The notes: generated by a model not told the origin, from the letters alone. DNA of 64,000 nucleotides from Bacteroidia bacterium (GCA_036386835.1 DASVUX010000003.1:8552-72551), one strand, 5' to 3'; shown: positions 2,481 to 26,815, counted from the stretch's first letter. Made by a program: numbers and translations.

Positions 2481-4166
2481 TTACACAGTCAGTTTCTTAT
2501 ATCTCACGCGCTTCGGCTCAACATTTCCTAATCGTTTCTTCCTGTTCTCTTCGTATTCGGAATATCCGCCTTCGAAATAGTACACGCTTGAATCCCCTTC
2601 GAATGCAAGGATATGCGTACACACGCGATCAAGGAACCACCTGTCGTGGCTGATGATCACAGCGCAGCCCGCAAAATTCTCAAGACCTTCTTCCAGTGCA
2701 CGCAATGTATTAACATCAAGATCATTTGTAGGCTCATCGAGCAGCAATACATTTCCTTCTTCTTTTAATGCCATTGCGAGGTGCAAACGGTTCCGCTCGC
2801 CACCTGATAAGATCCCGCACTTTTTACCCTGGTCGGAACCGGCAAAGTTAAAGCGTGATATATATGCCCTCGAGTTCATTGATTTTCCTCCAAGCATTAC
2901 ATTCTCTGCTCCTCCGCTTAATACATCATAAATAGATTTTTCAGGATCAATGCCCGAGTGAGACTGATCAACATAAGCGATCTTCACCGTTGGCCCCACT
3001 TTAAACTCTCCTGAGCTTGGCTTTTCCTGGCCCATGATCATGCGGAACAATGTGGTTTTACCTGCACCATTTGGCCCGATGATCCCTACAATGCCAGCAG
3101 GCGGCAGTTTGAAATTAAGGTTCTCGTATAACAGTCGGTCCCCGTACGCTTTAGAAACATTTACGGCTTCTATAACTTCATTTCCTAAACGCGGTCCGTT
3201 AGGAATATATAATTCCAGCTTGTCCTCAACTGCCCTTGCATCCTCACCAAGCATCTTCTCATAATTCTGTAAACGCGCTTTAGATTTTGCCTGGCGGCCT
3301 TTGGCTCCCTGGCGTACCCAGTCCAGCTCGCGTAATAATGTTTTCTGGCGCTTGCTTTCTGTTTTTTCTTCCTGCGCAAGACGCTTTTGCTTTTGGTCCA
3401 GCCACTCGGAGTAATTCCCTTTCCAAGGAATCCCTTCGCCCCTGTCGAGCTCAAGGATCCAGCCTGCCACATTATCAAGGAAATAACGATCATGGGTTAC
3501 CGCAATAACAGTTCCTTTGTAATGCTGCAAGTGCTGCTCCAGCCAGTCCACCGATTCTGCATCAAGGTGGTTGGTAGGCTCATCGAGCAATAGTATCTCA
3601 GGTTCCTGGATAAGCAAGCGGCACAATGCTACGCGCCTGCGTTCCCCACCGGAAAGATTAAGAATAGGTGTATCACTTTCAGGACAGCGCAGCGCTTCCA
3701 TGGCTTGTTCAAGGCGGTTATCAAGGTTCCAGAGATCCAGCGTATCGATCTGCTCCTGCAAATAAGCCTGGCGGTTGATGAGCTTATCCATCTTGTCCGG
3801 ATCATTCAGGTATTCCTCTTCCCCGAATTTATTATTTACATCATCATATTCCTTAAGGATATTCACATGTTCGGCAGCACCTTCCCGTACCACTTCAAGC
3901 ACCGTCTTGTTATTATCAAGCTGCGGCTCCTGTTCAAGGTACCCAACGCGATAGCCCGGTGAAAAATGGATCTCGCCCTGGTAATTTTTTTCAAGCCCCG
4001 CGATGATCTTCATCAGCGTAGATTTCCCGGAACCGTTCAAACCAAGGATCCCGATCTTCGCACCGTAATAAAAGGATAAATAAATGTCCTTTAAAATTGT
4101 TTTTCCTGTTGGCAACGTGCGGCTCACGTTAACCATCGAAAAGATTATTTGCCTGCCTTCTGACAT
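2481..4166 (-). CDS. ettA: Energy-dependent translational throttle protein EttA (ABC-F ATPase)
   Basis: 561 aa, two ABC cassettes (GLNGSGKST, LSGGERRRV; GPNGAGKTT, LSGGERNR), N-terminus MSEGRQIIFSMVNVSRTLP typical of EttA/YjjK. Confidence 0.9.
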   Translation of the reverse strand: MSEGRQIIFSMVNVSRTLPTGKTILKDIYLSFYYGAKIGILGLNGSGKSTLMKIIAGLEKNYQGEIHFSPGYRVGYLEQEPQLDNNKTVLEVVREGAAEHVNILKEYDDVNNKFGEEEYLNDPDKMDKLINRQAYLQEQIDTLDLWNLDNRLEQAMEALRCPESDTPILNLSGGERRRVALCRLLIQEPEILLLDEPTNHLDAESVDWLEQHLQHYKGTVIAVTHDRYFLDNVAGWILELDRGEGIPWKGNYSEWLDQKQKRLAQEEKTESKRQKTLLRELDWVRQGAKGRQAKSKARLQNYEKMLGEDARAVEDKLELYIPNGPRLGNEVIEAVNVSKAYGDRLLYENLNFKLPPAGIVGIIGPNGAGKTTLFRMIMGQEKPSSGEFKVGPTVKIAYVDQSHSGIDPEKSIYDVLSGGAENVMLGGKSMNSRAYISRFNFAGSDQGKKCGILSGGERNRLHLAMALKEEGNVLLLDEPTNDLDVNTLRALEEGLENFAGCAVIISHDRWFLDRVCTHILAFEGDSSVYYFEGGYSEYEENRKKRLGNVEPKRVRYKKLTV

Positions 4167-4320
4167 TTTAATTAGAGAATTAGTGAATTGGAGACTGGAG
4201 AATTATCCTGAAGCAGGAAAACAGGAGCACAAATTTAACTCTCAATTTTCCAACTCTTCAATTCTCCTTTTTACAAGGTGCAAATATCGTAAATTCCTGC
4301 GAGAAAAAAGGGAATAAATA

Positions 4321-4950
4321 TCAATTTAAAGGAAGGTAAAGGGGATGTTTTTCGTTATACCTACGGAGATAAATAAAGATTGAATCGGCTTTCTGGCGCT
4401 TTTTCAGCTTCATGAATTCTGTGTGCAGCTCCGGATCATCCTCCAGGATAATTTCCATATTCCGGACATTAAAATCCAACGCTTTGTTGGTGCGGGTATC
4501 CAGCACAAACTGCCTGAGCTCATCGTTAGTATTTATGCCATAGGTGTTCATTGGATCCTGGTAACCAACCGGTGTCATTACTACGGCCGCAAAAAGGCTT
4601 AAAAGCCCGATCTGGTTAATCCTGTTAAAGTCATTATTAAAATTGATGAACAAGGACCTGTTCTGGCAATATCCCCAAACTGTCATCGTTTCAACCCGCT
4701 GCTCCACTCCTTCCGAATTCCTGAAGGTGATATATTTCTGGTTGGTGATCTGCTTCATAAAATCCACCTGTGATTTGGGATAGCTGGATATAATAGCAGA
4801 CTTCAGTACAGGATCATTTCTTTTAAAATGCTCAAGTGATAAAAAAACACCCTCTTTAAAATCGTAATCACGGGAATATGCAACCGAATCAGGCCCGGCA
4901 ACAGCGGCAAATGGCAGCAAAAACAAAAATGAAAGCAGCAGTTTCATCAT
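4321..4950 (-). CDS. Secreted hypothetical protein, last gene of the dlt-like operon
   Basis: Signal peptide MMKLLLSFLFLLPFAAVAG; 8-bp gap to the upstream gene. Confidence 0.45.
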   Translation of the reverse strand: MMKLLLSFLFLLPFAAVAGPDSVAYSRDYDFKEGVFLSLEHFKRNDPVLKSAIISSYPKSQVDFMKQITNQKYITFRNSEGVEQRVETMTVWGYCQNRSLFINFNNDFNRINQIGLLSLFAAVVMTPVGYQDPMNTYGINTNDELRQFVLDTRTNKALDFNVRNMEIILEDDPELHTEFMKLKKRQKADSIFIYLRRYNEKHPLYLPLN

Positions 4951-4958
4951 TACCCGTT

Positions 4959-5906
4959 TTATTCTTTATTGAGCTTATTGATATACTTCGCCAGTGAATC
5001 GGTAAATATACGTGAACCTTCAATGTTAAGGTTCAGCGCGGATATATAATATTTCCTTGAAAAGGCTATTTCCATTTCCTCAAACCTCACATATTTAATG
5101 CCGTAATTTTCCGCTACCTGGTCGATCCTTTTTATTATTGTTTTCCTGTTTGGCTGAAAGGCAACAGCTTCTTTTAACACAGGTGATTCATAAAGTATCA
5201 CTCTTATCTTTCTACTGAGTGCCAGCTCGATCGTTTTTCGCAGATACTTTTCTCTTTTAAGATCCCACTCAAAATAATAGCCAAGAGGGTATAGCCGGAC
5301 AAATTCATCGTGATGGTTGTCCCAGACCACTTTCTGGGGAGGCTCATAACCATCAGCATAAAAAGGCTGTTTCCGGTCCTGTACATAATGTTTCAACCCC
5401 TGAAGGGCATCAAAATTAATCCTGCTGCTGTAATATGCATATTTCATAAAGGGAATATTTACGAATTTGAAATACCCCGGGTCCATTTCCTTTACCACAG
5501 AATCTACTACAGGATCGCCAATATACGGAGCGAAGCGGTAGGTATTGAATGTATTGTAGTTCCGGTCCATTGACTCAGGCGTAACATATAAAAACAGTAT
5601 TTCCGGTGCTTTGTTATTCTGAAGATAAAAATACAAGTGCAGGTAATTATCCGCAAAATCAGAATGGCTCAGGGCAAGATTGTAGGAATGTTTACTGATC
5701 TTTTTATCTATCGCTTTTGGGGAGATCATCCATAAAGGTTCGCAGGGCCCGTGAAAAAGCAGGTCGGCATTTATTTCCGCCAGCTGAACGTAGGCCGCTT
5801 TGTTATTCGCATTATGACGCAGAGCGAAATCATAAGCTTTACCTAACCCGGTGAGGACAAGCAAAACAATGATTAAAGAAATTAATATTTTTTTTATGTC
5901 ATTCAA
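4959..5906 (-). CDS. Membrane-anchored DltD/AlgJ-like accessory protein (inferred from context)
   Basis: Single N-terminal TM helix. It lies 2 bp downstream of the MBOAT gene, the position DltD/AlgJ occupies in O-acyltransferase operons. No strong motif recognised. Confidence 0.4.
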   Translation of the reverse strand: MNDIKKILISLIIVLLVLTGLGKAYDFALRHNANNKAAYVQLAEINADLLFHGPCEPLWMISPKAIDKKISKHSYNLALSHSDFADNYLHLYFYLQNNKAPEILFLYVTPESMDRNYNTFNTYRFAPYIGDPVVDSVVKEMDPGYFKFVNIPFMKYAYYSSRINFDALQGLKHYVQDRKQPFYADGYEPPQKVVWDNHHDEFVRLYPLGYYFEWDLKREKYLRKTIELALSRKIRVILYESPVLKEAVAFQPNRKTIIKRIDQVAENYGIKYVRFEEMEIAFSRKYYISALNLNIEGSRIFTDSLAKYINKLNKE

Positions 5907-5908
5907 AA

Positions 5909-7324
5909 TCAGAACTGCATATAAATAAACTGCTCACCACTGTTAAAAACACCGAAAATAAATATCAGCAGAAGCAGTATGGAAATGTAACCTATGCTTG
6001 CCATGCTGCTTAAAGCCCTGTTTGTTATACTTCTTTCAAAGATCAAAAAAACAAGCATGAGGAGGATGCTGATATAAAAATTAAATTCGTCAGCCTGGTG
6101 GCCTCCGATGGCTAATGGTGCAAGGAATTCTGCAAGCCAGTCGTTCGGCAGGAGATTACTGCCCGCATTCCTGATCAGTTCAAAAGCCCTTCCGGTGGAC
6201 TCCGACCGGAAAAAGATATTGCTGAAACATACCGCGTTAAAAACGATAAAGATCATTAATATCTTAAACACTTGGGATCCGGGCTTATGAAAGTGCTTTT
6301 CACGGAACGGCCTGGTTAAAAGCTCGATTCCAAGATAGAATATATGACAAGCCGCCCACAAAAGGAATGTTAAGCCGATGCCGTGCCAGATGCCTGAAAT
6401 AAAAAAGGTAATCGCAATCCCGCCAAATGCGGCAGCTTTTTTATACCTGCGCAGCGTATACACGAAAGGATAATAAATATAATTAGTGAACCAGCTGATC
6501 AATGAGATATGCCATCTCCTCCAGAATTCAGAAATGGATATAGACCGGAGGGGAAAATTAAAATTCTCCTTCAGGTTATACCCGAGCATCCGACCGGCTC
6601 CGAGCGCTATATCAGAATAACCTGAAAAATCGAAATACAACTGGAGCGTAAATAAATAGATTGCCGCAATAGTGGTTAGACCGTGATATGTATCTCCGAA
6701 ATCAAAAACGGAATGAACAGCCGGTGCGATCCTGTCGGCTATTACCATTTTTTTGAATAACCCCTGGAGGACCCTATTGAATCCTGAAACCAGCATTTCC
6801 CTGCTGATCTCATTCCTGTCAATCTGCGGAATGAACTCATTGGGCAGCATCACAGGTCCGCTGGCGATCCTTGGAAAGAATGAATTGTACAACAAAAAAT
6901 TTTTAACTGAATTTTCAGGCTTCAGCCGCTTGAAATAGATCTCTGTGAGATAAGAGATATTCTGAAGGGAATAGAATGATAAACCAAGCGCAATAATAAA
7001 ACTATTGATGTTAAAATGAACCTGTGAGTACGAAAAACCAATGCCCTGTTTAACCGCAAAGAAATAATTGAACATCATGATCGCGTAAGAATTTATCGCG
7101 ATCCCCGCAATATATAATAAGCGGTTTCCTGCTACTTTCCTGGCGATATAGAAATTGAAGCATGAAATAACAAGAAGTGCGGTAAGCGATTCTATGTTAT
7201 AATATGAAATGAATAATAAGCTGCACGAAAGAAGGAATACTGAACGGAATTTTAGGGGGAGCAAATAATTGATCAGCACGGTAAGCCCAAGAAAGCCAAT
7301 AAAAATAACAGAATTGAAATTCAT
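5909..7324 (-). CDS. MBOAT family membrane O-acyltransferase (DltB/AlgI-like)
   Basis: Polytopic membrane protein with the MBOAT histidine box FWRRWHISLISWF. Confidence 0.8.
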   Translation of the reverse strand: MNFNSVIFIGFLGLTVLINYLLPLKFRSVFLLSCSLLFISYYNIESLTALLVISCFNFYIARKVAGNRLLYIAGIAINSYAIMMFNYFFAVKQGIGFSYSQVHFNINSFIIALGLSFYSLQNISYLTEIYFKRLKPENSVKNFLLYNSFFPRIASGPVMLPNEFIPQIDRNEISREMLVSGFNRVLQGLFKKMVIADRIAPAVHSVFDFGDTYHGLTTIAAIYLFTLQLYFDFSGYSDIALGAGRMLGYNLKENFNFPLRSISISEFWRRWHISLISWFTNYIYYPFVYTLRRYKKAAAFGGIAITFFISGIWHGIGLTFLLWAACHIFYLGIELLTRPFREKHFHKPGSQVFKILMIFIVFNAVCFSNIFFRSESTGRAFELIRNAGSNLLPNDWLAEFLAPLAIGGHQADEFNFYISILLMLVFLIFERSITNRALSSMASIGYISILLLLIFIFGVFNSGEQFIYMQF

Positions 7325-7341
7325 TTGCTTTTATGGTTGAA

Positions 7342-7578
7342 CTATTTCCTGAGTTTATTCTCCAAAGCTGACAGCAGATCTTCCACGGAATTGAATCCCA
7401 TGACCTCATCAAAAGAAAATTGAATATGATATTCCTCTTCTATCGATGATATAAGCTCCAGGTGTGTAAGGGAATCCCAGCCCCGTATATCTTTCGCTGT
7501 TGTAGCACCGGATATTATGAGATCATCCCTCTGAAAAACTTTTCGGAATACCTGTTGTAACTGATCCTGTCTATCCAT
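7342..7578 (-). CDS. Acyl/D-alanyl carrier protein (DltC-like)
   Basis: 78 aa, phosphopantetheine attachment motif GWDSLTHLELI. Confidence 0.7.
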   Translation of the reverse strand: MDRQDQLQQVFRKVFQRDDLIISGATTAKDIRGWDSLTHLELISSIEEEYHIQFSFDEVMGFNSVEDLLSALENKLRK

Positions 7579-9070
7579 GAGTGTTCTCTTTCAAATATAA
7601 GGATTTTAAGGCTTTAAGATCTGTTTTGCCGTTTGTATTCAAAGGAAAACTTGCAACATGAAAGAAATGCCTTGGTACCATATATGCCGGCAGTGTTGCT
7701 GCGAGAGCCTCCTTCAGCCTGTTAAGATCAATTACTTCTGCTTCAATGAATGCCGCGAGCCGGTTGTTTCCATCTCCTGGCACAGTAAGAACCTTGGTGT
7801 TAAAGCCGCATAATTTCCTGAGCACATGTTCGATCTCCCCAAGCTCCACCCTGTAACCGTCTATCTTTACCTGGCTGTCGGCCCTTCCATAAAAAACGAG
7901 GTTGCCTGATCCATTCAAACCCGCCAGGTCTCCTGTTTTGTAAAAGCGTTTCCCGTCATGGTCAAAAAACCTATCATTGTGTTCATCCCTGGTATAGCTG
8001 CGGATCAGCTGGTCACCGGAAAAACACAGTTCGCCCTTTGTCACCTTTTCATTGCTCTCATTTATGATCATGAACTCCATCCCCTCAAATGGTTTTCCCA
8101 AAGGGACAATACCATTCACGCTTTCCTTTTCCGATATAGATTCATCAAAAATATAAGAGGTGCATACGATGGTGGTTTCGGCAGGTCCGTAACAATTATG
8201 GATCTTTGCAGTGCCAATGCATTGCTGCCATTTAGCGGCCAGCGCGTGCTGCAGGGCATCACCTGAAAAAAAACTGTAACGGAGGCTTTCTGCTTTTATC
8301 TCCGGGAGATATTTTTCAAGGTATTTTAAAACACCGGGAACCATGCTTACCACCGTGATCTCGAACCTGCGGATGTGCTCTATCATTTTCACGGGCTTTA
8401 TTCCTTCGTCCGGGAGGATATAACAGCATGCCCCCACCAGGAGCGGCATAAAAAAAGAGAAGACGGAAACATCGAATGTCAGCTCATATGTTTGAAGAAA
8501 GCGGTCGGAAGAATTAAAATCATAGTTCCTGAGAAAGTGGCTGAAGAATGCATTGAGGTTACTGTTGCTTACAGGAACACCCTTCGGTTCACCCGTTGAT
8601 CCGGAAGTAAATAAAATATAACAAAGGTCCTGCTGGTCAGATGACCTGTTATCTTGCATCCCCTGCCCCGTATGATCTTCTCCTGCCGTGTTTATTACTT
8701 TTAATTCTGAAGCAAGCTCCGAGGCGGACCCCATGCCCGGGCCCAGGATAAGCTCACTTTTACTTTCCTGCAGGATGAGGCGGTTCCTTTCCCTGGGATA
8801 TTTCCTGTTCAATGGAACATAAGCCGCACCATACAGGTTTATGGCAAGTATCGAAGCATACGTATAGATATCATCATTGCAAAAGACTGCAATCCGTTGA
8901 TAGGATTTATCGACTGGGATCATGCCCCTGATCTTTTCAACCAGCAGCATTAACTCAGCATAAGTATAATATTGCCCTCCGACATGAATGGCCGGATTCA
9001 AAGCATAGCCCGGTGCAAGCCTTTTTATCCTCAGGGCAAGGGGTTCATTCTGATGCAAAGGCCTCGACAT
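7571..9070 (-). CDS. AMP-binding adenylation enzyme (DltA-like carrier-protein ligase)
   Basis: AMP-binding motifs LFTSGSTGEPKGV, YGPAETT, YKTGD; 499 aa like DltA; overlaps the carrier protein gene by 8 bp. Confidence 0.8.
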   Translation of the reverse strand: MSRPLHQNEPLALRIKRLAPGYALNPAIHVGGQYYTYAELMLLVEKIRGMIPVDKSYQRIAVFCNDDIYTYASILAINLYGAAYVPLNRKYPRERNRLILQESKSELILGPGMGSASELASELKVINTAGEDHTGQGMQDNRSSDQQDLCYILFTSGSTGEPKGVPVSNSNLNAFFSHFLRNYDFNSSDRFLQTYELTFDVSVFSFFMPLLVGACCYILPDEGIKPVKMIEHIRRFEITVVSMVPGVLKYLEKYLPEIKAESLRYSFFSGDALQHALAAKWQQCIGTAKIHNCYGPAETTIVCTSYIFDESISEKESVNGIVPLGKPFEGMEFMIINESNEKVTKGELCFSGDQLIRSYTRDEHNDRFFDHDGKRFYKTGDLAGLNGSGNLVFYGRADSQVKIDGYRVELGEIEHVLRKLCGFNTKVLTVPGDGNNRLAAFIEAEVIDLNRLKEALAATLPAYMVPRHFFHVASFPLNTNGKTDLKALKSLYLKENTHG

Positions 9071-9121
9071 ATTTTAAATTATGCTTTATAATTCGTAAAT
9101 TTCGTAAATATATTCTTACTG

Positions 9122-11251
9122 ATGAAGAAAATACTACTCCTTGCATTCCTGCTGTCCGGCCTGCTGATCAGCGCACAAAGCAAAATGAATTTTGACCTTG
9201 CAAGAAAATTAAAAGAGCAGCCTCATTCAACTGACAACATCAATGTATTTATCAGTGGGAACAAGGATGTTATAAAACAACTCTGTACCGCTAACGGTGG
9301 GGTTTTCCGTTATTCCTCCGGAGATATTTCCACCGTTTCCGTACCTGTTTCTTCCCTGGGTATTTTCGCAGCGAACAGGCACATACAACGTATTGAAGCC
9401 TATACTCCACGTACAAAGCCATTAAATGACACCATGGTGATCCAGACAAATACAGCCCTGGTTCATGCCGGAGCCGCCCCCCTGGCCCAGGGTTATGATG
9501 GCAGCGGTGTGGTAATAGGTATCATCGACACCGGGATCGATTTTACCCATCCGGATTTCCGCGACAGCCTTGGAAACAGCAGGATCGACTTCCTCTGGGA
9601 CCAATCGCTGGCACAGGATACCAATACTCCGATGCCTTATAATTACGGGCAGGAATGGACGAATATCCAGATCGACAGCGGGCTCGCTTCGGCACATAAC
9701 GACCTTAATTATTCGGGACACGGTACCCACGTAGCCGGAATCGCGGTTGGGAACGGACTTGCAACAGGAACACATACAGGTGTTGCCCCCAAAGCGGATA
9801 TCATTGTAGTAGCCATCGATTTCAGCAGCAACTCTTCCACCCTGATCTCGGATGCTGTGGATTATATTTACTCACGCGCTGCTGCAATGGGGAAACCATG
9901 TGTTATTAATGCGAGCCTTGGTGACTATTATGGCTCACATGACGGCCAGGACCTGCAGGCGCAGATGATCCGCAGCATGATCGACTCGCAGGCGGGACTC
10001 GCTTTTGTTGCAGCGGCAGGCAACGGGGGAAATGTTCCTTTTCACCTTGGATATACTGTAACCACTGATACCAGTTTCACCTACGTAGAGCCTTCAGGGT
10101 CTTCTGCCTACATTCAAATGTGGTCGGATTCTGCTGATTTCAGTAATGTAAGGTTTTCAATCGGTGCCGACCAAATGAGCCCGTTTTCAAAGCGGGGACA
10201 TCTTCCTTTCTCCGGCATCAATGATCATCTCGGGATCCTCAGGGAAGATACGCTCTATAACAATGGCAACCGGATAGGCCGCGTCCTTAGCTATGGCGAC
10301 CAGATCAACGGTACTTATTCCATGGAGTTTGTTATTTATCCCGATTCAGCCTCCTACAACTGGCGGTTAATGACTACGGGCAGCGGAACTTTTGATGCAT
10401 GGACCTTTGACCTTTATTCGGGCATGCTACCTTCCGCATCCTCTATGCCCGACAGTATCTTCTATAAGCTTCCCGACAATAACAAAACCATCGTGAGCAG
10501 CTTTCTTTGCCTTGACAATGTAATTGGGGTCGGCAATTATACTAACCGCAAAACATACATCGATTACAACAATACTGTTTATGTGAACACGGCTACCAAT
10601 GCAGGTGAACGCCATGCGACTTCCAGCATCGGGCCTACCCGTGACGGCAGGATCAAACCTGAGATCTGCGCACCGGGCGACAATACGCTGGCAGCGGTTG
10701 TGCTTGCAATTGCGCCATCCATTATTGCAAACTATCCTGATGCACTGGCGCTGGGTGGATTTCATGTACGCAATGGTGGCACTTCTCATGCGAGTCCCTG
10801 CGTTGCAGGTATAGCTGCATTGTACCTGCAGAAGAACCCGAATGCAACAGCTATGGATGTAAAAAAAGCAATTGTCAACTGCCCGATCAGGGACTCATTT
10901 ACCGGCTCCGGGCTTCCTGATAACTACTGGGGTTACGGCAAAGTGGATGCAATGGGAGCGCTGACCTGCTCCCTGACAGGCACAGATGAGAATGAGCTTG
11001 CCGGATCAGCCTTTGCTGTTTATCCTAATCCTGCGATAAGCGGTACTCTTCTGAATATCAGCTTTCCATCACTGCAATCTGCAAATACCAATGAATTACG
11101 AATTTATAACACCCTCGGCAAGCTGGTGAAAATACTGGCACTGCAGGGAAAAGAGTCTTCATTCCGCACTGAATTAGGCACAGGACTTTACTTTTGCAGT
11201 CTTGTGGTGAACGGCAAGCCCGGAGCATCAAAAAAATTGATAATTTTGTAA
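9122..11251 (+). CDS. S8 family subtilisin-like serine peptidase with T9SS C-terminal sorting domain
   Basis: Catalytic D (IGIIDTGID), H (HGTHVAGIA), S (GTSHASPCVAGIAAL). Signal peptide. C-terminal FAVYPNPAISGTLLNISF...GLYFCSLVV CTD. Confidence 0.85.
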   Translation: MKKILLLAFLLSGLLISAQSKMNFDLARKLKEQPHSTDNINVFISGNKDVIKQLCTANGGVFRYSSGDISTVSVPVSSLGIFAANRHIQRIEAYTPRTKPLNDTMVIQTNTALVHAGAAPLAQGYDGSGVVIGIIDTGIDFTHPDFRDSLGNSRIDFLWDQSLAQDTNTPMPYNYGQEWTNIQIDSGLASAHNDLNYSGHGTHVAGIAVGNGLATGTHTGVAPKADIIVVAIDFSSNSSTLISDAVDYIYSRAAAMGKPCVINASLGDYYGSHDGQDLQAQMIRSMIDSQAGLAFVAAAGNGGNVPFHLGYTVTTDTSFTYVEPSGSSAYIQMWSDSADFSNVRFSIGADQMSPFSKRGHLPFSGINDHLGILREDTLYNNGNRIGRVLSYGDQINGTYSMEFVIYPDSASYNWRLMTTGSGTFDAWTFDLYSGMLPSASSMPDSIFYKLPDNNKTIVSSFLCLDNVIGVGNYTNRKTYIDYNNTVYVNTATNAGERHATSSIGPTRDGRIKPEICAPGDNTLAAVVLAIAPSIIANYPDALALGGFHVRNGGTSHASPCVAGIAALYLQKNPNATAMDVKKAIVNCPIRDSFTGSGLPDNYWGYGKVDAMGALTCSLTGTDENELAGSAFAVYPNPAISGTLLNISFPSLQSANTNELRIYNTLGKLVKILALQGKESSFRTELGTGLYFCSLVVNGKPGASKKLIIL

Positions 11252-11542
11252 TTGTTAAATCATAGGACCTTGGAAAAAAAGCTGAATATTATCGGGTATA
11301 TCTGTGTTGGATTTGGAATTCTTGCGGCATTGCTCTGCGTGATACCTGTAGCTTTCGGAGTGTTTTATGCGGTATTTGCAGGATTCCTCGGAATGGTAAG
11401 CTCTTCCGTGTATGTATTTATAGATACCAAGCATGAGATCAGCAAAAAAAGGCTTACACCCGGTGTTTACGGGATGATCCTGAGTTCGATCCCCATCCTG
11501 TTCATGCTTGCAATTGTTGTTATCGCCAAACTGAACCAATAG
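11252..11542 (+). CDS. Small integral membrane protein, hypothetical
   Basis: 96-aa ORF with three hydrophobic helices, directly upstream of the UbiA gene. Confidence 0.35.
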   Translation: MLNHRTLEKKLNIIGYICVGFGILAALLCVIPVAFGVFYAVFAGFLGMVSSSVYVFIDTKHEISKKRLTPGVYGMILSSIPILFMLAIVVIAKLNQ

Positions 11543-11546
11543 ACCT

Positions 11547-12422
11547 GTGCCTGCAAAAACCATAAACAATTATCTTTCACTTGTCAAGTTCAGCCATACG
11601 ATCTTTGCTTTACCATTCGCGATCATCGGTTATTTTCTCGCCATTACATATACAGGGAAGGCTTTTGACCTGAAGCTGTTCGGGCTTGTCCTGCTTTGCA
11701 TGGTGTTCGTGAGAAGCGCAGCAATGGCCTTCAACCGTTATATTGATCGTGAAATAGATACCGAGAACGAACGGACTTCAATAAGAGAGATCCCGGCAGG
11801 AATAGTAAAACCGACAGCAGCCCTCATATTTGTTTTCGTGAATTGCGTGCTGTTCGTTACCACCACCTTTTTTATCAATGAGCTTTGCTTTTACCTGTCA
11901 CCCGTGGCATTGATCATTGTGCTGGGATACAGCCTGACTAAACGCTTTACCGCGCTGTGCCACCTGATCCTTGGCGTTGGCCTCTCCCTTGCACCCATAG
12001 GTTCCTACCTTGCAGTGACGGGTGAGTTTGCATTGCTGCCACTGCTCTTCTCTTTTGCCGTATTATTCTGGGTAAGCGGCTTCGATATCATCTATGCATT
12101 GCAGGATGAGGAGTTCGACCGTTCAAAAGAGCTGCATTCCATCCCTGTATGGCTGGGAAAAAAAGGGGCATTAACGCTATCCATTGTATTGCATGTACTG
12201 AGCGCACTTTTCGTGATTTATGCAGGGATCTATGCCGGTTTTAACACGTGGTACTGGATAGGTGCCTGCGTTTTCTGCGGCCTTCTTATTTATCAGCATC
12301 TGCTGGTTAAACCTAATGACCTTAGTAAAGTAAACCTTGCCTTCTTCACTATGAATGGGGTTGCCAGCGTGATCTTTGCTGTGTTTGTGCTGCTGGACCT
12401 CTACATTAATTCAAACATGTAA
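11547..12422 (+). CDS. UbiA family polyprenyltransferase
   Basis: NRYIDREID Asp-rich motif and a second DxxxD region (YALQDEEFD); 8-9 TM helices. Confidence 0.75.
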   Translation: MPAKTINNYLSLVKFSHTIFALPFAIIGYFLAITYTGKAFDLKLFGLVLLCMVFVRSAAMAFNRYIDREIDTENERTSIREIPAGIVKPTAALIFVFVNCVLFVTTTFFINELCFYLSPVALIIVLGYSLTKRFTALCHLILGVGLSLAPIGSYLAVTGEFALLPLLFSFAVLFWVSGFDIIYALQDEEFDRSKELHSIPVWLGKKGALTLSIVLHVLSALFVIYAGIYAGFNTWYWIGACVFCGLLIYQHLLVKPNDLSKVNLAFFTMNGVASVIFAVFVLLDLYINSNM

Positions 12423-12480: not shown

Positions 12481-12546
12481 ATGAAGTATTCTTCAATCCT
12501 GGTATTTTTTATTCTCATCATTATGTTTTCTGCAATTACAGGGTGA
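12481..12546 (+). other. Out-of-frame N-terminal transmembrane anchor of sanA (MKYSSILVFFILIIMFSAITG*), separated from the body by a frameshift
   Basis: A 21-codon ORF encoding a TM helix ends at TGA 12544-12546. The SanA body (frame 0) begins at GTG 12543. One extra G in the GGG run would fuse them. Confidence 0.45.
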
Positions 12547-13106
12547 TCTCAACAACCAAAGCCCAGATCTTTAATGATGCATCAAAAATTGAAGGAAGAA
12601 CGGTTGGACTGGTACTCGGCACTTCGAAACTAAACCGTTACGGAAAGCCGAACCTTTTCTTTAAATACAGGATAACTGCTGCTGCTGAGCTTTTTAAGGC
12701 CGGCAAGATCAAACATATTATTGTGAGCGGTGATAATTCCCGTTCGGAGTATGATGAAAGCACCGACATGCATGATGCTCTGGTGGAAGCCGGGATTCCC
12801 GACAGCTGTATCACACTTGATTTTGCCGGGTTCAGGACGCTGGATTCCGTTGTACGCTGCCTGAAGATTTTCGGGCAAAAGGATGTCATTATCATTTCCC
12901 AGGAATTTCACAACCAGCGTGCATTATACATTGCGAATTATTACAAGATGAATGCTCTTGCGTTCTCAACGAAGGAAGTTCCGGCTAAATACAGCATCAG
13001 GACCACGCTACGGGAATATCTTGCCAAATGCAAAGCGGTGCTTGATCTTTATGTGCTTCATAAAGAGCCGCATTTTTTAGGGGAAGAAGTAAAAATAAAA
13101 ATCTGA
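12543..13106 (+). CDS. sanA: SanA/YdcF (DUF218) family protein, body domain
   Basis: GLVLGTSKL...HIIVSGDNSRSEYDESTDMHDALVEAGIP...LDFAGFRTLDSVVR aligns with E. coli SanA after its TM anchor. Confidence 0.7.
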   Translation: MISTTKAQIFNDASKIEGRTVGLVLGTSKLNRYGKPNLFFKYRITAAAELFKAGKIKHIIVSGDNSRSEYDESTDMHDALVEAGIPDSCITLDFAGFRTLDSVVRCLKIFGQKDVIIISQEFHNQRALYIANYYKMNALAFSTKEVPAKYSIRTTLREYLAKCKAVLDLYVLHKEPHFLGEEVKIKI

Positions 13107-13121
13107 GAAAACCAATTAGAA

Positions 13122-13901
13122 TTAAACAACCCTCTTCAGCAAACGCAGGCGGTGGGAATAATCCTTCTTTTCATTATTGAAAATTCCGTGATGATCGAAT
13201 CCATCGATCCGTACTTTCCCCGATGCATGAATGATCTTGTTATTGTCCATCACAATCCCAACATGGATAATCCTGCCTTCATCATTATCAAAGAATGCCA
13301 GATCACCTGCTTCTGCCTCTTCTACAAAACTTAAGGTCTCACCCTGCTCTGCCTGCTGGTAAGCATCACGTTTCAGCTTCACACCGTTGATCTTATAAAC
13401 CATCTGTGTAAAACCGCTGCAATCGATCCCAAATGGAGTTTTGCCTCCCCAGAGATATGGCGCATTGAGGTACATCATCGCGATCTCCATGATACCGCCT
13501 TTTGAAAAAGGAAGATGACCGCTGATATAAGCGCCATCATATAAATAGCTATGGTTTTCAACTGCACATTCCCCATTATCAAAATTGGGCAATGAGCTCG
13601 CAATTGTTATAGGGAAAAGCTGTTTGCTGTTGTTGTGCGTTACAACCTGGACAAGCTCGTTGGCAGAGAAGATCTCCGTTGAGTTAATAATATCAAAAGT
13701 ATGCTGCTGTATTGGCTGGAACTGCTTTTTATCGATCCAGCATTCGTAGCTGTCATAAGCATTCCTGATCCTGCACCAGTTTCCAATAATCTCCAGTATT
13801 TCAAAATGATCCCCGAATAAAAGCTGGGTGACCATCTCACTCCGGTCAGAAGGCTCTTTCCGGCAGGGAACTATACTTAGGTTGCAGATTCCAAATTGCA
13901 T
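13122..13901 (-). CDS. NlpC/P60 (C40) family peptidoglycan endopeptidase with N-terminal SH3-like domain
   Basis: Catalytic Cys (GIDCSGFTQMVY) and His (IIHVGIV) motifs. Confidence 0.8.
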   Translation of the reverse strand: MQFGICNLSIVPCRKEPSDRSEMVTQLLFGDHFEILEIIGNWCRIRNAYDSYECWIDKKQFQPIQQHTFDIINSTEIFSANELVQVVTHNNSKQLFPITIASSLPNFDNGECAVENHSYLYDGAYISGHLPFSKGGIMEIAMMYLNAPYLWGGKTPFGIDCSGFTQMVYKINGVKLKRDAYQQAEQGETLSFVEEAEAGDLAFFDNDEGRIIHVGIVMDNNKIIHASGKVRIDGFDHHGIFNNEKKDYSHRLRLLKRVV

Positions 13902-20481: not shown

Positions 20482-21855
20482 CTATTCCAGCTTCTGCAGC
20501 CAGACATCCGGATATTCATTCTTGTATTTCTGCTGTTCTGCTTCTCCTGTTTTCTGATCGTCTGTCTTCATCACATACACATAATACACTTTTGTTTTGT
20601 GGTTCTGGATCACAGAAGTGGACCTGTACCCTTTAATGATATTGGCTTCCTTGAATTTATTTGCGTTATCCTTGCTGCTGAAAGATCCGATCACAATATA
20701 ATACCCGGAATTCATGCTCATTCCGTTCTCATCCACGAAATCGTTGCTCAGGCCTGTACGCATTAAATTCTCTGTAAGATTTTCGCTGTTTCCGCTGCCC
20801 CCTCCATTTTTCATTTTCTGGAGCTCTGCTTTTAAACGCTCCATCTGTGCCTGGTTCGTATCTGCCTGCGCTTTCAGTTTTGCCAGCATCTGATCCGTCA
20901 GCGAATCTTTCGACTCTGTCCTTGTAACAACGGGAACCGGCTCTTCTGCGCGCCTGCCGCCTCCACCGAATGTATAGCTCAATAAAAATTCGGAAGATGC
21001 GCCTGTATATTTCGATACTTTACCAATGCCGAAATCATAGGCATAACCAACACTGAGGTTCTTATAGCGAACACCGATGCTTGCCGCAACAGCATAATCA
21101 CTGTGGTACGTAACCCCTACCCAGCCCATCTTTTTCCAGTCGAGCACCGCATTGATATCATACTGGAAGGGAACGCCTTTGGCACCACTCACGAAGATCA
21201 GAGGATAAGCTGTGATCTCTTTTTCCTTCACCACATCAAATACATACTTCACCGATCCCTGGAAGGTACGCGCAAGGTTGTAATAACTGTTCTCGCCAAG
21301 GTTGTTCTTGTATTTGATCTTGTTGCCCAATACCTGCGGAATTGCAAAGCCGACCTGCAGCTGCTTCCAAGTATAGCCCATGCCGAAATCAGCGCTGAAT
21401 ACTGTCCTGCTCTGGCGCTCATTTGAAAGGAAGGGATCATCAGTATCACGCACAACCGCTTTGGAGAAATCAATGCTGTTATTCAGCACCCCCAGCGCAA
21501 GCCCGAAGAATACATCCTGGTCATCGTTGATCTTCAGCTTGTAAGAATAATTTCCGGAGGCACCCATCCTGGATGTGATGTCGGTAACATCCGAATACAA
21601 CTTCAAACCAAGACCGATGTTCTTCGCTTCAATAGGGCCATCAAGCGTAAGATAGCTTGTCTGCGGACCGCCTTTTACGCCAACCCATTGTGAACGGTGG
21701 GTGATGAACGCACGTGTATGCTCATCGGTTGTTCCCGTGAAAGCGGGATTTGTAACAAACATATTGGTATAATACTGGCTGCTGAACGGTAACTGCTGTG
21801 CGAAGGCCGAAGCTGTAACAAGAAGTAAAGCTGCTGAGATATTTAGTTTCCTCAT
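20482..21855 (-). CDS. PorP/SprF family T9SS outer-membrane protein fused to a C-terminal SPOR domain
   Basis: N-terminal ~300 aa match PorP/SprF (QYYTNMFVTNPAFTG...RSQWVGVKGGPQT). A coiled-coil linker follows. The C-terminus YYIVIGSFSSKDNANKFKEANIIKGY...VYYVYV looks like a SPOR fold. Start at internal ATG (MRKLNISAALLL signal). Confidence 0.8.
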   Translation of the reverse strand: MRKLNISAALLLVTASAFAQQLPFSSQYYTNMFVTNPAFTGTTDEHTRAFITHRSQWVGVKGGPQTSYLTLDGPIEAKNIGLGLKLYSDVTDITSRMGASGNYSYKLKINDDQDVFFGLALGVLNNSIDFSKAVVRDTDDPFLSNERQSRTVFSADFGMGYTWKQLQVGFAIPQVLGNKIKYKNNLGENSYYNLARTFQGSVKYVFDVVKEKEITAYPLIFVSGAKGVPFQYDINAVLDWKKMGWVGVTYHSDYAVAASIGVRYKNLSVGYAYDFGIGKVSKYTGASSEFLLSYTFGGGGRRAEEPVPVVTRTESKDSLTDQMLAKLKAQADTNQAQMERLKAELQKMKNGGGSGNSENLTENLMRTGLSNDFVDENGMSMNSGYYIVIGSFSSKDNANKFKEANIIKGYRSTSVIQNHKTKVYYVYVMKTDDQKTGEAEQQKYKNEYPDVWLQKLE

Positions 21856-21893
21856 AGGATGTTGTTTTGCTGAATTTGTGATTGCTGCTCCCA

Positions 21894-24800
21894 TTATTTC
21901 TCCCCCTGTCTTAATACGGTGATCGCTCCCTTGTAAACCTTATCGGTGCCTTCCATCTCCACGAAATAATAATACGTTCCATCGGCTACCATATTGCCGT
22001 AGCTTTCCGATCCTGACTGCACCCTGCCGTCCCAGTTGTTATCATAGGCCTCTGATTTATAAACCACCTTTCCGCTCCTGTTCACTATGGTAAGCCGCGT
22101 ATTCGGGTAATTCTCCAGGTTCTGGATGATGAAACGGTCATTGTAGCCATCGTCATTCGGTGTCATCACATTTGATACTGTTAATTCAAAATCAACCAGC
22201 ACGGTAACCACCACTGAATCTTTGTCGGTACAGCCGTTCACATCTGTTCCAACCAGGAGATAAGTTGTAGTTGCAAGCGGGCTTGCCATCGGGTTTGGAA
22301 CAGAAACGCTGTTAAGACCGGTGTAAGGGCTCCACAGCCAGCTGATCACCCCGGCACCCATTCCGTTCAGTGTTATTGAGCTTCCCAGGCTTACGGTTGT
22401 ATCATTCCCTGCGAACACTACCGGTCCCGGAATTACCGTGATCACTTCCATGTTGTTCGTGGAGCAGCCGTTAACTGAATCTGTCACGATCACTACATAA
22501 GTTCCCGAAGTTGTTACAGTGATACTTTGTGTAGTATCGGAAGTGCTCCACATATAATCATAAGTACCTGTCGCGGCAGAAAGCACAACACTGTCACCCG
22601 AGCAGAAAGTAAGCGGTCCGCTTGCCGTGATCTCATTTGACGGCACTGCATTCACGATCACAGTGATCATGGCTGTATCCGCACAGCCCATGTTCGAAGT
22701 CGTCAAAAGGCTTGCATTATATGATCCGGCAGCAGCATAAAGATGCACGGGATTTACTGCAAGCGAATTGTTCCCGTCACCGAAATCCCACTGGTGAAAC
22801 TGGATCGATCCGGAAGGAATTGTTGAACCGTTCATGAAAGTCGTTACAGTTCCAAAACAGACAGTATCGGCAGCACCCATTGCCATTGGCTTAGGATAAA
22901 CAATTACGGTTGCCGCGGCAGAAGTATCAGCTGAGCAGATACCGCTTTGTACAATTACCCTGTACCAGGTTGTATCGGTTAAGTTAAGATAAGATTGGGT
23001 TGAAGTTGTGTTAGCAATCGCAGACCATGTTGCGCCTCCGTCAATTGATGATTCCCAGTTTTGAATTGCACCGACATATCCTGCAACAGTCAACGTCCCT
23101 GAATTAGCTCCTTCACAGCCTGCTCCAGCACCGCTGATCATTCCGGCAACGGAAACAGGTGTAACTGTAATCGTAACATTATTTGAAGTCACCGCATTAC
23201 AGATCCCGCTCTTTACAATAGCATGATACATTGTTGTAATGTTCAGGTTATTATAGATAAGTGAATCGGATGTACTTGAAAGTGGTGTCCAGTTGAATCC
23301 GCCATCCGTTGAAACTTCCCAGCCCTGGATCATCCCGGTGTATCCTGTTAAATGCAGCACACCATTATTCACGCCTGCGCAAACGGTATCGTTCATTGCA
23401 AGCGTTCCCGGGTTTGTGGGAGGATTCACATTGATTACAGCTGTTAATGATGTATCATTTCCGCAAAGGCCGCCGGAGATGATCACACGGTACCAGGTAG
23501 TATCCTGGAGATTGCTATATGAATGTGATGCTGATGTATTGCTGATCACCGACCATGTGGTCCCACCATCAGTTGAAGATTCCCATTGCATCACGGGACC
23601 GGACGAACCTGAAAGTGTCAGCATACCGCTGTTGATCGTATCACAAACCGTAGCCGAACCGTTCAGGGTCCCTCCGATGGCAACCTGATCAACCGTTATG
23701 GTCACCGCGTTTGAAGTCACTGCATTGCAGGTCCCGCTCTTTACAATAGCATGATACATTGTTGTAATGTTCAGGTTATTATAGACAAGTGAATCGGATG
23801 TACTTGAAAGTGGTGTCCAGTTGAATCCGCCATCCGTTGAAACTTCCCATCCCTGGATCATCCCGGTGTATCCTGTTAAATGCAGTACACCGTTATTTGC
23901 GCCTGCGCAAACGGTATCGTTCATTGCAAGCGTTCCTGGGTTTGTAGGAGGATTAACATTGATTACAGCTGTTGATGATGTATCATTTCCGCAAAGGCCG
24001 CTGGAGATAATCACACGGTACCAGGTGGTATCCTGGAGATTGGTATAGGAATGTGATGTTGATGTATTGCTGATCACTGACCATGTGAGGCCCCCATCCG
24101 TTGAAGATTCCCATTGCATCACGGGACCGGATGAGCCTGAAAGTGTCAACGTACCGCTGTTGATCGTGTCACAAACCGTAGTTGAGCCGTTCAGGGTCCC
24201 TCCTTCAGCGACAGGATCAACCGTGATGGTAACGATATTCGAAGTTGCTGCATTACACACCCCGCTTTTTACAAGAACCCTGTAAGAAGTAGTTTGTGAT
24301 AAATTAGAATACGGCTGTGAAGCCGTAGTGTTTGACAGGTTGATCCACGTTAAACCGCCATCGGTGGATGATTCCCAGTGCTGGATCGCCCCGGTTTGCC
24401 CGCTTAGTGTGAGTACCCCGGCATTGCTACCTGCACAAACCGTATCATCCGCTGAAAGAGTCCCGCCAGCAGTTGGAGGATCTATGGTAATTGTTGCAAC
24501 GGAAGATGTGTCCATTGCACAAACCCCGCTTTGAACGATCACGCGGAAAGCAGTGGTTACAGGGAGGTTCAGGTAATTCTCCGAAGCTGTTGTGTTTGCC
24601 GTTGCAGTCCATGTCGCACCGCCATCCGTTGATGATTCCCAGTTAAGTATTGTCCCGACATAATTGATCAGGTCCAGTGTACCGCTGTTCATTCCTCCGC
24701 AGGCTGTAGTACCTCCATTCAAAGTACCGCCTGCAGAAACCGGGTCAACGGTAAGTATGGCGGCCGCAGAATTCTGACTCGGGCATGAACCGTTTTTTAC

Positions 24801-26714: not shown

Positions 26715-26815
26715 AAAATAGATTTTAGTTTGAGTAGTGTTCTGTGAAAACACCCCGACCTTATACGAAGGCCTGTTAATTAAGTTACGTATTTAAAACA
26801 CTCATATCCACCCGA

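Follow-up and report, generated by a model that had tools for sequence, protein, structure and literature searches.

Bacterial acylation by paired MBOAT and SGNH proteins is accounted for by a model in which two types of system are recognised (PMC12148441). In the first, represented by Dlt, the donor is a carrier protein and an FxYxxF motif is borne on the microprotein DltX, whereas all other systems use an acyl-CoA donor, have the shuttle fused to the MBOAT protein and do without a carrier protein. The FxYxxF motif acts as an acyl shuttle, in that its tyrosine takes the acyl group from the MBOAT protein and hands it on to the SGNH partner, a role that has been shown by experiment for PatA and DltX (PMC12148441). 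Genes resembling dlt are already known in Gram-negative bacteria, with homologues of dltBAC and dltD being present in Dickeya, Pectobacterium and Photorhabdus, outer-membrane bacteria in which they contribute to polymyxin resistance (PMC3544676). Here we describe an operon that appears to combine features of both types. It lies in a stretch of Bacteroidia bacterium DNA of 64,000 nucleotides (GCA_036386835.1, DASVUX010000003.1:8552-72551; the window in what follows), and its five minus-strand genes encode, in order, an amino-acid adenylating enzyme, a carrier protein, an MBOAT protein, a membrane-anchored SGNH-fold protein and a secreted accessory protein (Table 1).

The reading that we favour is that the operon specifies an acyl-relay, fed by the carrier protein and running through the MBOAT and SGNH proteins, which probably aminoacylates a component of the envelope at the periplasmic face of the inner membrane, and which would represent a functional analogue of Dlt that has been assembled independently. 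In the searchable literature, outside which most subscription journals fall, nothing relevant was found on dlt in Bacteroidota or on an adenylating enzyme, carrier protein, MBOAT and SGNH combination outside Dlt; nor was there a description of a carrier-protein donor joined to a fused shuttle, of an SGNH variant with a Cys and His81, or of exchangeable loaders. A preliminary description of the window had proposed a dlt-like operon, and its gene logic, from adenylating enzyme through carrier protein and MBOAT to a DltD-like protein, holds. Its gene boundaries and sizes are matched exactly by all five open reading frames (ORFs), its domain assignments are borne out by the Pfam scores given below, and the gaps or overlaps of 2-18 bp that it reported correspond to an 8-bp overlap between the first two genes followed by gaps of 17, 2 and 8 bp. 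What it overlooked were the fused FIYMQF shuttle, the Ser-to-Cys and His rewiring of the SGNH protein and the variation in the loader.

The 471-residue MBOAT protein scores 80 bits with the Pfam MBOAT model, has LTA_dltB (TIGR04091) as its sole NCBIfam match, at 152 bits against a cutoff of 375, and matches only DltB by sequence in the PDB (71 bits across residues 95-373). Its DltB-like core spans residues 1-373, and the remaining 98 C-terminal residues, which are without DltB homology, include two extra transmembrane helices by hydropathy (411-429 and 442-460) and finish with the hexapeptide FIYMQF, in which the FxYxxF pattern is read directly. In DltB, His289 and His336 are named as the key pair (PMC11035591), and these align with His272 and His314, respectively. 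The preliminary description had singled out WHISL as the histidine box; this motif is indeed present and carries His272, although the histidine that is universally conserved in MBOAT proteins is His314, which lies in WHG, the W, H and G of which are invariant in an alignment of 13 MBOAT sequences.

The C-terminal shuttle is a consistent property of these proteins. An exact FIYxxF end is found in 48 of the 49 MBOATs that adjoin homologues of the 315-residue SGNH protein, the 49th having FIYAQF followed by one extra residue, and a shuttle-type motif ends 77 of the 80 related MBOATs in a broad metagenome sample that was retrieved with the MBOAT alignment. A separate DltX-like micro-ORF was sought among the stop-to-stop frames of positions 3000-11000 and none was seen, since only the MBOAT frame ends in the motif, bar one out-of-frame artefact inside the carrier-protein gene. 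Because there is no such ORF, and because the neighbouring MBOATs end in FIYxxF, the window would, on its sequence, unite a fused shuttle with donation from a carrier protein.

With the donor module, the 499-residue enzyme scores 189 bits with Pfam AMP-binding and 309.1 bits with the NCBIfam amino acid adenylation domain (TIGR01733), just short of the cutoff of 317.4. By comparison, the DltA models NF003417 and TIGR01734 give 255 bits (cutoff 476) and 245 bits (cutoff 559.85), and the fatty-acyl ligase models of NCBIfam give 147 bits or less. Its PDB matches are to the adenylation domains of non-ribosomal peptide synthetases (NRPS), namely 8k4r (242 bits), GrsA (209) and 4oxi (207), and to DltA (168). 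Asp200 and Lys482, which are the equivalents of Asp235 and Lys517 and would bind the alpha-amino and carboxylate groups, are kept in 27/27 orthologues. The enzyme is thus assigned, by scores and conserved residues, to those that activate an alpha-amino acid and not a fatty acid, the grouping that the preliminary description had anticipated. Its ten-residue specificity code, with positions mapped via the A4 and A5 core motifs, is DVFSFSCIVK; most orthologues have DVFSFS(F/C)IVK, DVFSFSFIVK being the commonest, and this aromatic-rich pocket suggests a small residue as substrate. Glycine specificity via the match to LgrA, which ranks first in the PDB search, was considered and rejected, the 362 bits of that match being the sum of two adenylation domains (Val and Gly) at about 180 bits each.

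The 78-residue carrier protein scores 32 bits with Pfam PP-binding and finds only weak generic acyl carrier protein matches in NCBIfam, where the DltC model gives no match. Its phosphopantetheine attachment site, Ser36 in WDSLTH, is invariant within the pattern W(D/N)S(L/F)xH in 36/36 orthologues. WNS replaces WDS at this site in L056, L058, L059 and L069 (L numbers denote loci in our comparison), which are Flavobacteriales loci without an adjacent adenylating enzyme, and in L061, where the loader is an FkbH protein; the variant could reflect another kind of loader or another preference on the part of the phosphopantetheinyl transferase. Within the operon there is no other enzyme that could accept from the carrier protein, be it a condensation domain, a ketosynthase or another acyltransferase.

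The 315-residue protein was matched by nothing in Pfam, in NCBIfam or among PDB chains, whether by sequence or by profile; its homologues number 325 by word index, and there are 2262 cluster representatives when they are grouped at 50% identity. Its AlphaFold2 model, for which 32 sequences were used, has a predicted local distance difference test score (pLDDT) of 92 and a predicted template modelling score (pTM) of 0.91. When this model was compared with the PDB using Foldseek, the top 8 matches were all DltD (6o93, 7dxm, 3bma), with E values of 2.5e-7 to 2e-5 and template modelling scores for the query (TMq) of 0.50-0.54, and SGNH esterases and PatB ranked below them. The link to DltD came solely through comparison of folds, since the sequence searches gave nothing, and the SGNH/DltD-like fold is the one that the preliminary description had set beforehand as a test. 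Members of the family match DUF1574, Lipase_GDSL_2, DUF459 and DltD weakly. A single transmembrane helix at residues 4-22, which agrees with the membrane anchor described earlier, is preceded by two lysines, and by the positive-inside rule the catalytic domain would therefore be periplasmic.

What is it about this protein that sets it apart from other members of the SGNH superfamily? All of its characterised relatives have a catalytic Ser where the window protein has a Cys, and a review of SGNH enzymes lists only Ser-based triads or dyads (PMC9487903). In an alignment of 74 homologues from genomes and 126 distant representatives, using the numbering of the window protein, the canonical form of the family has GSSR in block I, NLGxxG in block II and (N/D)xxH in block V, corresponding to Ser55, Gly81 and His292. 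In the subfamily to which the window protein belongs these blocks have become G(P/S/A)CE, NLALSH and SxLN. Within the Bacteroidota subfamily Cys55 is universal (74/74 copies) and His81 nearly so (71/74), while His292 is kept in 3/74, position 292 being Asn, Val or Ile, and around 50 further positions are invariant or near-invariant. Across the representatives the presence of Cys55 and of His81 goes hand in hand with the absence of His292, with hardly an exception. A small group (P0160, P0165, P0168, P0172, P0174, P0176 and P0220) has Ser55 together with both histidines, in the arrangement GSSN...H81...SxFH292, and looks, from its sequences, like an evolutionary intermediate between the Ser/His292 and Cys55/His81 sites. 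Because the substitutions covary and pass through two-histidine intermediates, the alignment indicates that the catalytic base has been moved rather than lost, and a Cys55-His81 dyad with a thioester intermediate may be inferred. In the independent sample provided by the SGNH partners of the metagenomic MBOATs, the residue is Ser in 44/44 and Cys in 0/44.

A plausible course for the relay can be drawn from these features. Initially, the 499-residue enzyme would adenylate a small alpha-amino acid and load it as a thioester on the phosphopantetheine of Ser36, as judged from family membership and conserved residues. The carrier protein would then dock onto the MBOAT protein from the cytoplasm, where His314 and His272 would transfer the aminoacyl group to Tyr468 of FIYMQF, by analogy with DltB/DltX and PatA, and the hexapeptide, held on its two extra transmembrane helices, would do the job of DltX. 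The aminoacyl-Tyr ester would subsequently swing to the SGNH protein, where, from the fold and the covariation, Cys55 would accept the group as a thioester and His81 would be the likely base. Behind these three steps stand homology, gene linkage and conserved residues, and the biochemistry published for DltB/DltX/DltD and PatA/PatB. In the last step, which is the weakest of the four, the SGNH protein would pass the group to its acceptor, most likely, by descent, a glycan exposed to the periplasm such as lipopolysaccharide (LPS) or O-antigen, a precursor of capsule or exopolysaccharide, or peptidoglycan.

Table 1 Features of the operon and its neighbours in the window
Feature	Position	Strand	Basis or remark
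Gene 1, amino-acid adenylating enzyme, 499 aa	7571-9070	minus	Pfam AMP-binding
Alpha-amino-binding Asp200 of the adenylating enzyme	8471-8473	minus
Carboxylate-binding Lys482 of the adenylating enzyme	7625-7627	minus
Gene 2, carrier protein, 78 aa	7342-7578	minus	Pfam PP-binding
Phosphopantetheine attachment Ser36 in WDSLTH (DSL site)	7471-7473	minus
Gene 3, MBOAT, 471 aa	5909-7324	minus	Pfam MBOAT
His272 in WHISL, equivalent to DltB His289	6509-6511	minus	alignment
FIYMQF, last six MBOAT residues (FxYxxF motif)	5912-5929	minus	direct reading
Tyr468 within FIYMQF	5921-5923	minus
Gene 4, membrane-anchored SGNH-fold protein, 315 aa, TTG start	4959-5906	minus	AlphaFold2 and Foldseek
Cys55 in block I GPCE, candidate nucleophile	5742-5744	minus
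His81 at the block II Gly position, candidate base	5664-5666	minus
Asn292 in place of the canonical block V His	5031-5033	minus
Gene 5, secreted accessory protein, 209 aa	4321-4950	minus	weak DUF6563 match
S8 subtilase with T9SS C-terminal sorting domain	9122-11251	plus	divergent from operon
DUF218 protein	12543-13106	plus
NlpC/P60 peptidoglycan endopeptidase with SH3 domains	13122-13901	minus

The nature of the acceptor is where the alternative with most in its favour arises. The window contains several proteins with a C-terminal domain of the type IX secretion system (T9SS) and one PorP/SprF homologue, and the host is a Bacteroidota bacterium bearing this system; teichoic acid is therefore not the expected acceptor, as the preliminary description had also held, and to our knowledge Bacteroidota do not make teichoic acids. 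A glycan-type acceptor is proposed because the Ser-type MBOAT-SGNH relatives sit in glycan clusters, and it is only weakly suggested, since the operon itself lies outside any such cluster. With the donor chemistry unchanged, the acceptor could instead be a lipid (lipid A or the head group of a phospholipid) or else a protein, either secreted or of the T9SS. This would fit with the absence of a nearby polysaccharide cluster and with the divergent S8 peptidase, which bears a T9SS sorting domain, has its start codon only 51 bp from that of the operon and is kept in 20/35 related loci, along with the genes at 11252-12422 that encode a small membrane protein and the prenyltransferase UbiA. It would also fit with the sulfatase-family membrane protein of LtaS/EptA type that is found directly 5' of the MBOAT gene in L025. 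A thioester on Cys55, moreover, would favour transfer to amines, and eukaryotic MBOAT proteins acylate secreted proteins. The S8 synteny, though, could be no more than the gene order of a single lineage, the closest Ser-type relatives lie in glycan clusters, and the characterised bacterial MBOAT-SGNH pairs all act on glycopolymers (PMC12148441, PMC9487903), such that a lipid or protein acceptor is held to be rather doubtful, albeit the most serious of the competing explanations.

In L025 (4716-9667) the sulfatase-family protein has 621 residues and an LtaS/EptA-like architecture, and is followed by the MBOAT gene, the SGNH gene and a homologue of the 209-residue protein, with no carrier protein or adenylating enzyme detected. 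As a clue to the acceptor, this gene may hint at a modification of phosphoglycerol or phosphoethanolamine type.

Conservation of the operon was followed across 75 related genome loci, with counts taken only from those with enough flanking sequence. The loci come from metagenome-assembled genomes (MAGs) of Bacteroidota, except for two contigs labelled Candidatus Saccharibacteria (L036 and L043), both of which have orphan homologues and which are probably mis-binned. An MBOAT gene is placed directly 5' of the SGNH gene in 42/67 loci, a carrier-protein gene lies 5' of the MBOAT gene in 35/40, separated from it by 0-30 bp or overlapping with it, and an adenylating-enzyme gene is present in 25/38, or in 25/33 of those loci that bear a carrier protein. 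These genes have not come together by chance, and their core unit is carrier protein, MBOAT and SGNH, usually together with the adenylating enzyme. The conservation of gene order that the preliminary description had envisaged is seen only in part, the gene for the 209-residue protein being present in 15/47 MBOAT-linked loci and 25/67 of the SGNH homologues being orphans.

The broad metagenome sample puts this association into perspective. A carrier protein of the window's family occurs near the MBOAT gene in just 2 of its 80 members. One of them, L080, is a close relative with adenylating enzyme, carrier protein and MBOAT, and the other, L155 (3423-9262), has an FkbH protein, a methyltransferase, a carrier protein, a glyoxalase-family protein, an MBOAT ending in FIYFKF and a Ser-type SGNH protein. 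Among the genome loci, L061 (4174-8963) has an FkbH-like loader (FkbH_N, 210 bits), of the type that places glyceryl units on carrier proteins, in the position of the adenylating enzyme, at an orthologous site with the same UbiA and S8 neighbours. Fused-shuttle MBOATs fed by a carrier protein appear, from these sequences, to be rare yet recurrent and to have differing loaders, and the FkbH loci L061 and L155 suggest that glycerate-derived acyl groups may be carried by the same chassis. That the coupling of carrier protein and MBOAT survives the swap to FkbH argues that the donor is the carrier protein and not CoA. A metagenome scan with a single FkbH protein gave no matches, and the carrier-protein alignment was too variable for the design of a metagenome pattern.

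These counts also bear on whether the MBOAT-SGNH pair is simply one more O-acetyltransferase of the PatAB/AlgIJ type, dependent on acetyl-CoA, that has come to lie beside an adenylating enzyme and carrier protein of some unrelated pathway. A fused shuttle is the architecture typical of acyl-CoA users, the closest relatives are without an adenylating enzyme or carrier protein, and there are pairs that lack both even among the related loci (L051, L053, L054 and L074). Yet a carrier protein directly 5' of the MBOAT gene is so much more frequent here than in the broad sample that the association must be specific, it stays beside the MBOAT gene when the loader is exchanged, and the operon provides no alternative enzyme to which the carrier protein could deliver; an ordinary O-acetyltransferase is accordingly regarded as unlikely.

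Of similarly low probability is that the Cys-type SGNH protein is no transferase, being instead an inactive scaffold, or an esterase or thioesterase with an editing or removing role, with the MBOAT protein delivering the acyl group directly. The canonical Ser-His pair has gone, and the orphans without an MBOAT gene, 25 of the 67 loci, are what might be expected of a free-standing hydrolase. However, the near-complete retention of Cys55 and His81, together with the 50 or so near-invariant positions, is not a pattern of decay, the substitutions covary through intermediates with two histidines, and the membrane anchor and the position immediately after the MBOAT gene mirror those of DltD and PatB.

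The least probable explanation is that of a true dlt operon, orthologous to the DltABCD of Firmicutes and D-alanylating an anionic envelope polymer as has been proposed for Dickeya and Bordetella: some Gram-negative bacteria do possess Dlt genes, the best-named equivalog matches in NCBIfam are DltA and DltB, DltB is the sole PDB sequence match of the MBOAT protein and DltD the best fold match of its partner, but the DltA score of 245 falls far short of its cutoff of 560, as does the DltB score of 152 of its cutoff of 375, the DltC and DltD models are unmatched, the adenylating enzyme scores higher with NRPS adenylation domains than with DltA, the MBOAT protein is about three times closer in bits to the MBOATs of Bacteroidota polysaccharide clusters and has its shuttle fused with no DltX, the SGNH protein is DUF1574-like with a Cys in place of the DltD Ser, and the guanine plus cytosine (GC) content is that of the flanks.

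This leads to the origin of the pair. Ser-type SGNH relatives, which were retrieved with P0196 and one of which belongs to the cultured Chitinophaga alhagiae, are encoded directly 3' of MBOATs of about 480 residues ending in FIYFQF, and these pairs sit inside Wzx/Wzy/glycosyltransferase clusters without genes for an adenylating enzyme or carrier protein. The window protein aligns with such polysaccharide-cluster MBOATs over its full length, with 32-34% identity and scores of 200-220 bits. As the closest MBOAT relatives are glycan-cluster pairs that lack the donor module, the window pair seems to descend from polysaccharide O-acyltransferases of the acyl-CoA type and to have gained its adenylating enzyme and carrier protein later. 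The likeness to Dlt would then be one of convergence and not of orthology, and the earlier label of dlt-like does not stand as a statement of descent, there being no DltA, DltB or DltD threshold that is reached. Horizontal transfer of the operon from Firmicutes was considered and rejected, given that its GC content matches that of its flanks and that its MBOAT is closest to those of polysaccharide clusters.

Returning to the carrier-protein-fed relay, a number of points weigh against it. All members of the window's system come from uncultured MAGs. The adenylating enzyme is below the cutoffs for both DltA and the adenylation domain, and its code DVFSFSCIVK matched no specificity code that could be verified. 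Eight of the 33 loci with a carrier protein have no adjacent adenylating enzyme, four have an MBOAT-SGNH pair without a carrier protein, and the SGNH homologues include the orphans mentioned above; on account of these three observations the four genes are not an obligate unit. We know of no precedent for the docking of a carrier protein onto an MBOAT of the PatA/AlgI type. Finally, the operon is outside any polysaccharide cluster, its neighbours being the S8 peptidase, UbiA, DUF218, NlpC/P60 and ABC-F genes.

The orphans are of some interest in themselves. Those of the Cys type (L019-L043, L047, L064, L067 and L073, with the gene at about 8001-8930 in each) have no MBOAT gene within several kb, and in L021, L031 and L039 the orphan is preceded by a pair of small genes for lipoprotein-like or outer-membrane-like proteins.

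The fifth gene has the character of an addition to the core unit. Its 209-residue product has the signal-peptide-like N-terminus expected of the secreted protein that had been described, followed by a core rich in beta structure and, at the C-terminus, three helices, and it scores 21.9 bits with DUF6563, under the cutoff of 27.1 that some of its homologues exceed. The family comprises 130 proteins, all from Bacteroidota MAGs, and a copy identical to the window protein is on record from a Bacteroidia bacterium MAG. An AlphaFold2 model (pLDDT 82.7) found no fold match in the PDB, where the best E value was 0.6 and the TM scores were below 0.2. The gene is located 3' of the SGNH gene in the 15 MBOAT-linked loci already referred to and in 0/24 orphan loci. 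The protein may thus be classed, from this distribution, as a lineage-restricted accessory, which perhaps presents or handles the acceptor.

Beyond the operon, the NlpC/P60 and DUF218 genes, at a distance of 3.5-5 kb, are envelope-related. Further along the window, at 20482-26753 on the minus strand, a PorP/SprF T9SS membrane protein has a peptidoglycan-binding SPOR domain fused at its C-terminus, its gene lying directly 3' of that for a CHU_C-type T9SS cargo protein of 1619 residues. A promoter and terminator scan, which does not cover Bacteroidota promoters, gave counts no higher than those of shuffled sequence.

The broader significance of the locus is that it points to an as yet uncharacterised modification of the cell envelope of Bacteroidota with aminoacyl groups, and charge modifications of this sort govern, elsewhere, resistance to cationic peptides and interactions with the host. 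More tentatively, and with less confidence than is attached to the relay itself, the locus may belong to an unrecognised class of envelope-tailoring machines, in which a fused-shuttle MBOAT-SGNH chassis is fed by a carrier protein with exchangeable loaders, and in which, within one Bacteroidota lineage, the thioester formed at a Cys55/His81 dyad could open the way to attaching amino acids by amide bonds (N-acylation) to some periplasmic or outer-membrane acceptor that bears an amine; such amide-forming chemistry is not known from any MBOAT-SGNH system. The natural Ser-to-Cys variant with its relocated His and surviving intermediates should, in addition, be useful for understanding how enzymes of this kind favour transfer over hydrolysis.

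How, then, does the locus relate to the systems that have been described? The SGNH partner can be placed with respect to DUF1574 (PF07611, SGNH clan), which is matched weakly by 14/32 family members and by several distant representatives, and not by the window protein itself; precomputed Pfam matches also assign some homologues of the 315-residue protein to DUF1574. These proteins are listed as having no known activity or structure (PMC9487903), and the present loci offer them a first functional context, as MBOAT partners in glycan clusters with a Cys-type offshoot.

The AlmEFG system of Vibrio cholerae, which places glycine onto lipid A, is like the window in achieving aminoacylation of a Gram-negative envelope with a stand-alone adenylating enzyme and a carrier protein. 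PDB entry 4oxi, one of the structures matched by the window enzyme, is presumably AlmE, although its record is titled 'Enterobactin synthetase component F-related protein'. AlmG, however, is an enzyme of the lipid A acyltransferase family that works at the cytoplasmic face, and not an MBOAT-SGNH relay, so there is neither a Tyr shuttle nor transfer across the membrane. The genes of Dickeya, Pectobacterium and Photorhabdus are, by description, homologues of Gram-positive dlt (PMC3544676), whereas the window operon would be convergent and derived from a different MBOAT-SGNH lineage.

With the Dlt system of Firmicutes, in which DltA, DltC, DltB, DltX and DltD D-alanylate lipoteichoic acid, the window shares the order of events, from adenylating enzyme to carrier-protein thioester, MBOAT, FxYxxF tyrosine, membrane-anchored SGNH protein and acceptor. 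Both key histidines of DltB are present, and DltD is the best structural match of the 315-residue protein. The differences are nonetheless substantial. The host of the window has an outer membrane. No component of the operon reaches a Dlt family threshold, and PF04914 (DltD) is unmatched by the 315-residue protein. DltB has about 400 residues and no fused shuttle, unlike the 471-residue MBOAT of the window with its shuttle on two extra transmembrane helices, and what is a separate DltX microprotein in Dlt is here a part of the MBOAT protein. The Ser-His-Asp triad of DltD is replaced by a site with Cys55, without the block V His and with its putative base His elsewhere.

The O-acetyltransferases PatA/PatB, AlgI/AlgJ and WssH/WssI correspond to the window in having an MBOAT of about 470-480 residues with two extra transmembrane helices and a fused C-terminal FIYxxF, with the SGNH gene directly 3', and it is among pairs of this type in polysaccharide clusters that both window proteins have their nearest sequence relatives. 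Neither a carrier protein nor an adenylating enzyme accompanies them (PMC12148441), with which 78/80 of the sampled loci agree, whereas the window has both. Moreover, pairs of the PatA/PatB type use Ser-His(-Asp), in contrast to the putative Cys55/His81 of the window, which also lies outside a glycan cluster. The window locus and its relatives therefore mix the two types of the current model, in that a carrier protein apparently supplies a fused-shuttle MBOAT, for which exchange of the loader would alter the acyl group received.

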